Of a stretch of DNA of 64,000 nucleotides, positions 45,781-48,894 are shown piece after piece. The notes below the pieces were generated by a model. It did no database searches. It was not told the origin of the DNA and saw nothing but the letters and a program-made list of their open reading frames with translations. Numbering within the stretch: the stretch's first letter is position 1; each line of letters begins with the position of its first letter. The stretch is from an uncultured Candidatus Saccharibacteria bacterium (lineage in GTDB: Bacteria > Patescibacteriota > Minisyncoccia > Phycocordibacterales > CAYRGE01): NCBI GenBank assembly GCA_964612415.1, contig CAZTCT010000001.1, positions 137,949 through 201,948 on the forward strand, in the 5' to 3' direction. The position numbers and the translations under genes are program-made.

Positions 45781-45884
45781 CGGAGACTCCTCCTCTAGAA
45801 GGTGACTTCTGGGGGCACTCTAAACAATGGTGATATTGTTGTCAAAAACAAAAACGCCCACGAAAGGCGTTTTGTTGTTGGCTG

Positions 45885-46277
45885 TGGAGATGGGGGGATT
45901 CGAACCCCCGTGCAAAAGTGTTCCTCGAACGGTTCTACAAAGCGTAGTTTGTTTCATTTGTTTAGATGCAATGAGTAGAAAACAAACAAAATCTTCATTA
46001 CATCGATCCTCTACATTTCAAAATATTGTCGAGGCGAGCAATATTTCTACATCTGAAGATATAACACCTGTTTGATCATGTCAGATTCACAATCAGCAGA
46101 TGGCTACGCGCTATTTAGGCGTATGCAAACGCGAAGTCGTTCTTCGTAAAGTACGGAGAGACGAGCGCCCGCGCTTTTTGTGCGATATTTGCACTTTTGT
46201 TTGGCATGTTTTTCGAGAGTTGCCATCTCGGCTTTGCGCATAAGAGGGGAGTACCCTTGTCGATGCCTAGCATCCCC
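45885..46277 (-). ncRNA. ssrA: Transfer-messenger RNA (tmRNA, SsrA); inferred tag ending ...KNDFAFAYA-stop
   Basis: The minus-strand 5' end GGGGAUGCUAGGCAUCGACAAGGG parallels the E. coli tmRNA 5' GGGGCUGAUUCUGGAUUCGACGGG. The 3' end is ...GGGGGUUCGAAUCCCCCCAUCUCCA, a tRNA-like T-arm plus acceptor. It sits immediately downstream of smpB. An internal ORF ends GCA-UAC-GCC-UAA. Confidence 0.7.
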
Positions 46278-46730
46278 TTATTGAAAACGGGATTTTATTT
46301 CTCTTTCAACGTCCCGAGCAGTATCGCGCTTCTTAATGGTTTCGCGCTTGTCGTGTTTCTTTTTGCTTCTAGCGAGACCCAAGGAGAGCTTGATATGCCT
46401 ATTTTTAGTATATAACGAAATAGGCACTATTGTCAAGCCCTTCTGGGATTCTTGCGAGGCGAGCCGCTCAATCTCCTCTTTGTTGAGGAGGAGCTTTCTG
46501 TTGCGGAGTGGGTCAAAATCTTTCGGCGCATTATTTTTTTGAAACGCAGGGATATCAGCTCCCACGAGAAATGCTTCGCCGCCACGGACGAGTACGCGTG
46601 CGCCTTCAAGGGAGCCGTGTTTTGCGCGGAGCGTCTTCACCTCAAATCCGTGCAGGGAAATACCGGCCTCCCATTCCTCGAGGATGTCATAGTCAAGCCG
46701 CACCTTTTTTCGCTCTACTAATATAGGCAT
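46278..46730 (-). CDS. smpB: SsrA-binding protein SmpB
   Basis: Full-length match to SmpB (GISLHGFEVKTLR...LLLNKEEI...LARSKKKHDKRE). Its stop codon abuts the predicted tmRNA 5' end. Confidence 0.9.
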   Translation of the reverse strand: MPILVERKKVRLDYDILEEWEAGISLHGFEVKTLRAKHGSLEGARVLVRGGEAFLVGADIPAFQKNNAPKDFDPLRNRKLLLNKEEIERLASQESQKGLTIVPISLYTKNRHIKLSLGLARSKKKHDKRETIKKRDTARDVEREIKSRFQ

Positions 46731-46822: not shown

Positions 46823-48766
46823 ATGCTTCCCGGCAAACAACAAAAGAAGAACGGGGCTCCTGAGCGTGCGCCCAATAAGCGATCTCCTGAAGGAGGGAAG
46901 GAGCAGTTTTTTGGTAATCTCGTTACTGCTATTCTTATATTCCTCATCATTGCGACTGCGTATTCTCTCATCGCTGAGCGTGGTGATGCAGCAGAGAAAA
47001 TCGCACTCTCTACTCTTGCGTCAGATATAAGCGCGGGTAATGTGGTGTCACTTACCGTGTCTGGCAATGTCGTAGAGGCCACATACGCGGATGATTCAAT
47101 AAAAGAGACTCGCAAAGAGAATGAGACAGCTCTCTCTGAGACACTTGCAAACTACGGTGTGCGCCCCAATGCGCTTGAGCATGTAGAGATCACCATAAAA
47201 GAGCAAAGTGGATTTGGGTATTGGTTTGTAAATCTCCTGCCGCTTATCCTACCCATTGCACTCATCATCCTTTTCTTCTGGCTTATCTCACGACAAGTGC
47301 GTGGTGCAGGTATGCAGGCGTTCACCTTCGGGCAATCAAAGGCGCGCATGATTGATCCGAATGACAAAAAGCAGAAGGTGACATTTAAAGATGTTGCCGG
47401 AGCAAAGGAGGCAAAAGAAGAGTTAGTTGAGATCGTAGACTTTTTGAAAAATCCCAAAAAGTTTTTGGAGATCGGTGCGCGTATTCCAAAAGGCGTGCTA
47501 CTTATCGGTGCCCCTGGTACAGGTAAGACATTGCTTGCTCGCGCCGTAGCGGGGGAAGCGTCGGTGCCGTTCTTCATCATCTCTGGCTCTGAATTCGTAG
47601 AGATGTTTGTCGGTGTGGGTGCAAGTCGTGTGCGTGACCTTTTCAAAATGGCGAAAAAAGCTGCGCCCGCAATTATTTTCGTAGATGAGATCGATGCCGT
47701 GGGGCGTGTGCGCGGCACAGGTATCGGTGGAGGTAATGATGAGCGGGAGCAAACACTCAATCAAATCCTCGTTGAGATGGATGGATTTGAACCGAACGAA
47801 AAAGTGATAGTTATGGCAGCCACGAACCGGCCGGATGTATTGGACCCAGCACTCTTGCGACCAGGAAGATTTGATCGTCGCGTGGTGCTTGATCTACCGG
47901 ACATAAACGATCGTGAGGAAATTCTCAAAACTCATTCAGGCAAAAAGCCCCTTGCGGAAGATGTGAACTTTCGCGTTATTGCAGAGCGCACACCAGGATT
48001 CTCTGGTGCCGACCTTGCATCTCTCATGAACGAAGGGGCGATCCTTGCTGCGCGAGAGAATCGCAAGACAGTTTCGCAGTTTGACCTCATTCGCTCCATT
48101 GAGAAAGTGATGCTTGGTCCTGAACGCAAGAGTCATCTTTTGAGTAAAAGGGAAAAAGAAATTACCGCATATCATGAAGGTGGGCATGCGCTTGTTGCGT
48201 CTGTGTTGCCGCACTCTGATCCGGTGCACAAAATCTCTATTGTCTCGCGTGGACACGCAGGAGGGTATACGCTCAAGTTGCCGCTTGAAGAGAAGCGACT
48301 TCGTTCACGCAATGAATTTCTCGATGATATATCAAGCGCGCTTGGTGGGTATGTTGCGGAGAGGATGCTTTTCAATGATTTCACTACTGGGCCTTCAAAT
48401 GATATTGCAGTTGCAACAGCGCTCGCGAGAGATATGGTCACAAAATATGGCATGTCAGAAAATATTGGCCCTGTCGCACTTGAACCGGGGGGAGGCCGAT
48501 TAAGTCCAGGGCATGAGCTCGGGAGACATGAATATTCAGAAACAATCTCAACGAAGATTGATGATGAAGTTTCAAGAATAATGCAGGAGGCAAAAAAGAA
48601 AGCAGAAGACGCTATCACTACACACCGAGAGGCATTAGACGCCATTGCCAAGGAACTCATCCGTGTGGAAACTATTGAGCGGGAAGATTTTGAAAAGATA
48701 CTCGTTGCTCATGGGATTACACCCAAGAAGCTCCCTGAAGAGGAGGCAGCGGACCCGACAAAATAA
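46823..48766 (+). CDS. ftsH: ATP-dependent zinc metalloprotease FtsH
   Basis: Two N-terminal TM helices, an AAA module ([25 protein letters not shown]), SRH, and the HEGGHALVA zinc site. 647 aa. Confidence 0.95.
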
Positions 48767-48818: not shown

Positions 48819-48894
48819 TGGTCCGCCTGGCAGGACTCGAACCTACAACCACGGAGATATAAGCTCCGTGCTCTAACCATTGAGCTACAGGCGG
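48819..48894 (-). tRNA. tRNA with anticodon UAU (tRNA-Ile, AUA-reading); CCA encoded
   Basis: Cloverleaf: CCGCCUG-UA-GCUC-AAUGGUUA-GAGC-A-CGGAG-CUUAUAU-CUCCG-UGGUU-GUAGG-UUCGAGU-CCUGC-CAGGCGG-A-CCA. 7/4/5/5-bp stems, U33, A37. Confidence 0.7.

Follow-up and report, generated by a model that had tools for sequence, protein, structure and literature searches.

A probable ssrA promoter inside the smpB reading frame, at a locus of the Patescibacteria where smpB directly abuts the tmRNA gene

In Escherichia coli, the genes for the two partners of trans-translation, the protein SmpB and the transfer-messenger RNA (tmRNA) encoded by ssrA, lie in that order on one strand, separated by a 214-nt spacer that holds ssrA's own promoter. 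Cells as a rule contain much more tmRNA than smpB mRNA. Two other known arrangements combine a structured or small RNA with coding sequence. Some enterobacterial small RNAs arise from promoters embedded in upstream open reading frames (ORFs), as do MicL in cutC and DapZ in dapB, and mixed tRNA-mRNA operons, such as the one in E. coli in which tRNA genes share a transcript with tufB, are matured by RNase P. Here we describe smpB and ssrA in a 64-kb stretch of DNA (64,000 nt of contig CAZTCT010000001.1, referred to as the window), in which the gene order and strand are those of E. coli but the spacer has a length of zero and the best candidate for an ssrA promoter lies within the smpB frame.

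The module is the standard trans-translation pair of a bacterium of the Paceibacteria, in the Patescibacteria or candidate phyla radiation (CPR). Its components are textbook ones, while the wiring of smpB and ssrA is unusual. The features on which the argument depends are the following.

46278-46730, minus strand: smpB coding sequence, 150 amino acids, stop TAA at 46280-46278 (ORF list; Pfam PF01668, E=8.4e-46)
45885-46277, minus strand: ssrA, a one-piece tmRNA, mature 5' G46277 to discriminator A45885 (RF00023; relaxed ARAGORN)
46431-46436, minus strand: -35 hexamer TTGACA, codons Leu99-Thr100 of smpB (promoter scan)
46407-46412, minus strand: -10 hexamer TATACT, codons Tyr107-Thr108, 18 nt past the -35 (promoter scan)

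The embedded site, TTGACA-18-TATACT (46436-46407, minus strand), matches the sigma-70 consensus at 11 of 12 positions and is hosted by the SmpB motif G-L-T-I-V-P-I-S-L-Y-T. Sites of at least 11/12 number five in the window against 1.25 expected, and three of the other four lie just upstream of or between ORFs. To place the site in a comparative setting, we used three sets of relatives: 80 loci from one-genome-per-species contigs, fetched partly with a pattern that covers the promoter motif (set 1); eight loci, with seven distinct sequences, fetched by exact protein identity (set 2); and, as a control for ascertainment, 80 metagenome loci retrieved with patterns from parts of SmpB that exclude the promoter motif (set 3). 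The site is carried by 75/80, 8/8 and 78/80 of these loci, respectively. Relatives typically spell the same codons TTG ACA ... TAT AAT, a perfect consensus, with a -10 that reads TAT AAT, TAT ACT or TAT AGT, so that most score 12/12. Codon choice at the hexamers is as follows.

Leu99 as TTG: 83/83 in the first set and 79/80 in the metagenome set, against a background of 0.20 (20-27% overall); p=2e-54
Thr100 as ACA: 71/84 in the first set and 65/80 in the metagenome set; background 0.25
Tyr107 as TAT: 71/83 in the first set and 74/80 in the metagenome set; background 0.55
Asn108 as AAT: 62/63 in the first set and 62/62 in the metagenome set
Ser108 as AGT: 8/9 in the first set and 13/13 in the metagenome set
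Thr108 as ACT: 5/6 in the first set (a subset of 81) and 3/3 in the metagenome set

Whatever residue it encodes, codon 108 is always AxT in the metagenome set; the exceptions in the first set are one AAC, one TCA and one ACA. A synonymous-site profile of smpB over 87 sequences has a single outstanding peak, at codons 99-108, where -log10 p takes the values 47, 20, 6, 6, 2, 11, 9, 10, 5 and 11; most other codons stay below 4, and none exceeds 10. The flanking codons Gly98, Ile101, Pro103 and Ser105 use all of their synonyms in the relatives. In the set 1 loci that retain the site, hardly any other promoter-like sequence occurs from the start of smpB to the tmRNA. All site-bearing loci with enough downstream sequence for a tmRNA call have ssrA after smpB and on its strand.

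Loci that have lost the site serve as natural controls. L122 keeps the Leu-Thr...Tyr residues, spelled CTA ACC ... TAC CAA; a terminator stands directly behind its smpB, and a tmRNA is lacking within 2.5 kb. L065 likewise has neither the embedded motif nor a nearby ssrA. In L134, where the -10 codons read TAT TTG, a perfect TTGACA-16-TATAAT stands in the locus's own 63-nt spacer, and in L070 a consensus promoter lies beside ssrA, its -10 ending 7-9 nt before the tmRNA. L075, which has also lost the motif, offers only a weaker promoter-like site (10/12) in a spacer of 799 nt. Because the synonymous constraint is matched by loss of the site at loci that lack ssrA or supply it with a separate promoter, we read the smpB-internal site as the ssrA promoter. 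The comparative evidence for this reading, although drawn from sequence, is strong, and most pre-tmRNA probably starts inside smpB.

An earlier note on this DNA had proposed a single smpB-ssrA transcript from which the tmRNA is excised. In its strict form, this means that the only transcript starts at a promoter upstream of smpB, that RNase P frees the tmRNA and that the internal site is inactive, which we consider rather unlikely. Co-transcription as such is certainly possible, as neither a terminator nor a spacer separates the two genes, and read-through is also part of the reading that we favor. Co-transcription alone, however, does not explain why about 150 of 160 relatives hold these synonymous sites to the exact sigma-70 consensus, nor why the site is lost where ssrA is absent or self-promoted (L122, L065, L134 and L070). 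In addition, the promoter scan found no strong match in the 92 nt upstream of smpB, although tmRNA usually far outnumbers smpB mRNA. What stands of the proposal is excision: the 5' end of the tmRNA has to be released from a longer precursor. The abutment of the genes does not demand an exclusive full co-transcript, given the conserved promoter inside smpB.

Several points weigh against an internal ssrA promoter. The -10 of the window, TATACT, matches only 5/6, and at 18 nt the gap exceeds the optimum by one base. Recognition of a sigma-70-like kind is assumed for the Patescibacteria, where it is backed only by the consensus-like sites before other genes of the window; to our knowledge, transcription signals of this group are essentially unstudied. 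The sequences compared are related, so the p-values overstate their independence, though synonymous sites beside the motif are saturated. Relatives with long spacers have up to ~590 nt between the -10 and the tmRNA, and an internal promoter alone is less obvious there. Finally, the RNA of RNase P is not found in the 64-kb window, where it is not expected, and the enzyme is therefore assumed.

The junction on which the rest of the reading depends is formed by the following elements of the tmRNA.

46271-46277, minus strand: 5' strand of the acceptor stem, GGGGAUG, pairing with 45886-45892 (CAUCUCC), G3:U70 included; predicted RNase P cut A46278/G46277
45886-45909, minus strand: T arm GGGGG-UUCGAAU-CCCCC (45909-45893) followed by the acceptor 3' strand CAUCUCC (45892-45886) (sequence, Rfam alignment)

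That the smpB stop codon abuts the tmRNA 5' end at 46277, as claimed earlier, is borne out by both the Rfam model and the acceptor stem. The RF00023 match (45882-46277, minus strand) covers model positions 1-374, the whole model, with 121.8 bits and E=3e-48, where the gathering score is 47, and it begins at 46277; the first G of the tmRNA thus follows the smpB TAA directly. The acceptor stem, of 7 bp, fixes this 5' end independently of the model. It is fully paired in 73/80 relatives, with G3:U70 in 79/80, and covaries among them, as in GGGGGUG/CACCUCC and GGGACUG/CAGUUCC. The T arm carries a GUUCGAAUC-type loop. As regards pseudoknots PK1-PK4, the Rfam alignment extends over all tmRNA helices but flags a number of non-standard pairs, both in P2 and in the helix that follows the tag. 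The 3' CCA is not encoded in the window, where A45885 is followed by CAG (...CUCCA|CAG); among relatives it is encoded in only 13/80 and absent from the DNA in 67/80. Many bacteria do not encode it, so its absence is no bar to tmRNA identity. On the side of smpB, residues 6-146 align to positions 3-142 of the 143 in the PF01668 profile, a full-length match, and the best SmpB matches (57-99% identity) come from Paceibacterota/Parcubacteria genomes of the Patescibacteria.

Could the junction be an artefact of mis-assembly, of a decaying ssrA pseudogene or of a wrongly placed smpB stop? ARAGORN with default settings called no tmRNA in the window, and gene callers annotate a spurious 52-aa ORF in its place. 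With a lowered threshold (-ps), the same program does find the tmRNA, also with its 5' end at 46277, and by default it detects 49 of the 74 tmRNAs of the clade, missing about a third. The full-model Rfam score, the intact acceptor stem, G3:U70 and T loop, a tag that fits the clade consensus (below) and an SmpB of the usual 150-aa length all speak against an artefact. The same junction occurs in L081, which is 97.6% identical in DNA over 4.4 kb; as L081 comes from an independent sample, the junction is not an assembly artefact. The independent lineage L145 also reads TAA|GGGG. We regard the explanation as effectively refuted. The spurious ORF starts with ATG and lies wholly within the tmRNA, in the tag frame (46115-46273, minus strand); at 2533-2691 of L081, the same ORF is annotated as a protein-coding gene in the public record. 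This false 52-aa gene is there because the tmRNA is unannotated.

A further alternative is that transcription begins directly at G46277, with no processing of the 5' end, the promoter being an unconventional one that overlaps the last part of smpB. L070, with its consensus -10 only 7-9 nt before the tmRNA, indicates that near-leaderless transcription of ssrA exists in the clade. The earlier note saw no spacer between the genes, and there is no room for a promoter there. In the window, positions -12 to -7 before the tmRNA read CGTTTT, and the sole TAAAAT (-20 to -15) is not preceded by a -35 at a distance of 16-19 nt. Moreover, the long hairpin that ends at -1 and pairs with G1-G4 in many relatives makes sense only for a transcribed leader. 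Direct initiation is accordingly a highly improbable explanation. With a spacer of 0 nt and no -10 placed for G46277, it follows that the mature 5' end has to be generated by cleavage of a longer transcript that includes smpB sequence.

The favored reading, an internal promoter with a contribution from upstream read-through, adds two features to those given above.

46278-46400, minus strand: predicted 5' leader of the pre-tmRNA, ~123 nt, corresponding to the last 41 smpB codons
45851-45873, minus strand: intrinsic terminator, 9-pair hairpin AAAACGCC-UUUCGU-GGGCGUUUU (terminator scan)

We think it probable that pre-tmRNA made in these two ways is cut at 46278/46277, terminated at 45873-45851, trimmed, provided with CCA and charged with alanine. 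The gene would be transcribed mainly from the sigma-70-type promoter within the smpB frame, with a start expected 6-8 nt past the -10, at A46400 or G46399, and read-through from a weaker smpB promoter would add to this. An endonuclease, presumably RNase P acting through the tRNA-like domain, would then cut between A46278 and G46277. RNase P is the enzyme of 5' maturation for tmRNAs, the E. coli precursor included (PMC3968760), so the excision put forward earlier names the expected enzyme, while the cut itself is presumed. The substrate geometry at -1/+1, an acceptor stem stacked on the T arm, is present in the window. The hairpin at 45873-45851 lies 11 nt past the discriminator base and is followed by the U run TGTTTTTG; it would stop transcription, after which the 3' end would be trimmed to A45885 or C45884 and CCA added. 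Charged through G3:U70, the tmRNA would rescue stalled ribosomes together with SmpB, adding (A)ANIAQKARALVSPYFTKNDFAFAYA to the stalled protein and thereby marking it for a protease. A promoter inside smpB would also leave the spacer free to shrink; it measures 0 nt in the window and reaches -8 nt elsewhere in the clade.

The terminator had been described as bidirectional (45846-45876). A hairpin with a T-run is indeed present at 45873-45851, but the scan made no call on the plus strand, so the bidirectional label is unsupported. It is also superfluous, since the gene that follows (45780-45367; 137 aa, without a Pfam match) is oriented like ssrA. Directly past the terminator, a promoter-like TTGACA-17-TAGAGT stands at 45817-45845 (minus strand), 37 nt before that ORF.

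Spacing among the relatives puts the zero spacer in context. In every locus with a callable tmRNA (Rfam, nhmmer), it lies downstream of smpB on the same strand; L065 and L122 are without one despite ample downstream sequence, and the other uncalled loci have only 0-613 nt downstream. The earlier note had called for such a comparison, and it emerges that abutment is not general, with spacers running from -8 to 799 nt (medians 83.5 and 56; about a fifth of at most 15 nt; 12 and 25 nt in L006 and L015), although the exact 0-nt spacer recurs in the unrelated L145. Species nearest to the window (65-71% SmpB identity) have spacers of 40-125 nt. The zero spacer is, on this sequence comparison, a recent extreme of a clade-wide trend. 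Three separate lineages go further, with smpB ending 8 nt inside the tmRNA gene (L078, 3431-3438; L080, 2947-2954; L111, 1209-1216), so that tmRNA bases 6-8, within GGGGAUGA or GGGGGUGA, double as the smpB stop TGA. With its promoter within smpB, ssrA would have no need of the spacer, which would carry no essential signal.

Where spacers are ~40 nt or longer, a long and often perfect hairpin ends at tmRNA position -1, its 5' arm preceded by a CCC(C) that pairs with G1-G4 (for instance L001, 3457-3500; L059, 3439-3494; L083, 3454-3493; L005, 3448-3511; and L087, 2661-2740). Its sequence differs among lineages while its position is kept, and the predicted RNase P site falls inside the stem. A plain count of pairing between G1-G4 and the leader is uninformative, as 47% of shuffles pair too; only a strong-stem criterion (dG <= -20 with G1-G4 paired) separates real from shuffled leaders, being satisfied by 20/59 loci versus 1.9% of shuffles. 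The hairpin is possibly a 3' stabilizer of smpB mRNA after the cut, or a clamp for folding or processing. In the window, a weak UCCC...GGGA form of it is the most that can be seen, and shuffled sequences fold as well as the 130-nt leader does (z=-0.54).

Other features of the spacer region were seen in particular relatives. In those with short spacers (L015, L022, L034, L019, L055), a TTGAAA/TTGATA motif occurs 4-18 nt before the tmRNA 5' end, in varied reading frames and sometimes overlapping the smpB stop, and codons 143-146 of smpB give a small synonymous-site signal. TTGAAA at codons 145-146 was rejected as a second ssrA promoter, as its geometry puts the start inside the tmRNA and the motif is absent there in the window. 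L033 (3470-3500) has a tmRNA without the 5' GGGG, reading ..GAAATT|ATGCAAGGCATAGAC versus GGGGATGCAAGG in relatives; its acceptor stem cannot form, for which damage to the gene or a fault in the assembly may account. A small ORF, M.YFVYILLS.. (GIY-YIG-like by eye), lies between smpB and ssrA in L142 (2942-3040), L149 (2939-3040) and L062 (3439-3500), and looks like the insertion of a mobile nuclease gene.

The proteolysis tag and the gene that neighbors smpB bear on the fate of the tagged proteins.

46115-46192, minus strand: frame of the tag, opening with the resume codon GCA (46192-46190), 25 codons long and closed by the stop TAA (46117-46115); translation ANIAQKARALVSPYFTKNDFAFAYA*
46823-48766, plus strand: ftsH, divergent from smpB (Pfam AAA and Peptidase_M41)

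The resume codon GCA, tmRNA position 86, is preceded by ..AAAGU, and relatives have ..aagt GCA at positions 86-94. About 75 relatives within the Paceibacteria share the tag consensus A(K/N)..K.K..VSPYFG.NDFAFAYA(xA), with variation at the extreme C-terminus, and the sole substitution between the window and L081 within the tag region is synonymous in the tag frame. The relaxed ARAGORN run proposed a different tag, AGARLSVLYEERLRVCIRLNSA (frame AGARLSV...), which we rejected since the relatives' tags and the conserved resume context favor the other frame. The frame and the last residues, FAFAYA, had thus been read correctly before; the tag is, however, the ordinary one of its clade and not special to this genome. 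Its suggested resemblance to Mollicutes tags is partial. Mesoplasma florum, like the organism of the window a small-genome bacterium, has a tag (AANKNEENTNEVPTFMLNAGQANYAFA, 27 residues, ..ANYAFA, read by its own Lon) that is similar in length to the 25-26 residues here and in its alternating aromatic/Ala end, but by eye there is no similarity beyond the last few residues, and ..VSPYFG.NDFAFAYA(xA) is the motif of this clade. A literature search for the strings FAFAYA and NDFAFA, incomplete in coverage, gave no match.

No Lon or Clp was found among 14 ORFs scanned in the window, whose 64 kb are part of the genome only; the large ORFs in this search encode translation factors, SecY, RecG, ComEC and an RNase J-like protein. 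In 63/88 loci, an FtsH gene lies no more than 3 kb from smpB-ssrA, either divergent from smpB, as in the window, or directly downstream of ssrA; linkage in both of these arrangements suggests a functional tie. In E. coli, FtsH degrades some ssrA-tagged proteins (PMC3968760). The neighboring FtsH is therefore a candidate protease for proteins tagged with ..SPYFTKNDFAFAYA. Adjoining ftsH in the window is a tRNA-Ile with the anticodon TAT (UAU) (48819-48894, minus strand; called by ARAGORN and confirmed as a tRNA by Rfam), and many relatives have a tRNA gene at the same place. AUA in bacteria is usually read by a modified CAU anticodon, and a UAU tRNA-Ile is uncommon.

What is new here is a probable promoter for the RNA partner that is embedded in, and constrains, the coding sequence of the protein partner, with the spacer gone, together with a long tag specific to the clade. 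A literature search, again of incomplete coverage, returned nothing relevant on an smpB-internal ssrA promoter or on tmRNA in the Patescibacteria. One stretch of DNA would have two uses, ten codons of a conserved SmpB motif being also a consensus promoter for SmpB's RNA partner. This two-use sequence is kept across a large uncultivated lineage, with natural loss-of-function controls within the same data, and it provides a concrete candidate promoter sequence for the Patescibacteria. An internal promoter would also explain the tight linkage of smpB and ssrA and a gap that falls to zero or below. For annotation, the consequence is that default ARAGORN misses the tmRNA and a false 52-aa protein is reported inside it; the clade tag (..SPYFG.NDFAFAYA..) and the neighboring ftsH provide an entry point to the protease question in minimal cells.

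A more far-reaching proposal is that the ssrA promoter, absorbed into the smpB frame, partly fixes G-L-T-x-V-P-x-x-x-Y-N, that the zero-spacer cut leaves an smpB mRNA ending at UAA, and that SmpB synthesis is thereby throttled. We hold this to be decidedly unlikely. If true, an smpB mRNA with neither a 3' untranslated region (UTR) nor a protective hairpin, in contrast to the longer-spacer relatives with their hairpin ending at -1, would be a borderline non-stop substrate, open to 3' exonucleases, and tmRNA maturation and trans-translation would throttle the synthesis of SmpB, a built-in feedback between the partners.

Compared with known systems, the locus shares with E. coli, besides the gene order and strand, a one-piece tmRNA, G3:U70, the T arm, an Ala resume codon and an in-frame stop. 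It differs in having its promoter inside smpB and no spacer, and also in the tag, which in E. coli has 11 residues ending in YALAA and here has 25 codons ending in FAFAYA; CCA is encoded in E. coli and not in the window. The homologous E. coli SmpB codons, GGC TAT ACC GTA GTG GCG CTC TCC CTG TAC TGG, are not promoter-like, and the embedded promoter appears, on the sequences compared, to help fix the residues Leu-Thr...Tyr-Asn of SmpB in this clade. As in the tRNA-tufB operon, a tRNA-like RNA would be cut from a transcript that also holds coding sequence; tRNA-mRNA operons have spacers, however, whereas the cut in the window would fall right after the stop codon and leave a full-length smpB mRNA without a 3' UTR. 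With MicL and DapZ, the locus has in common a promoter in the 3' part of an ORF and a transcript whose 5' portion is coding and which is later processed. It differs from those cases in that the host ORF encodes the very protein with which the RNA must work, and in that synonymous sites preserve the promoter throughout a bacterial class.

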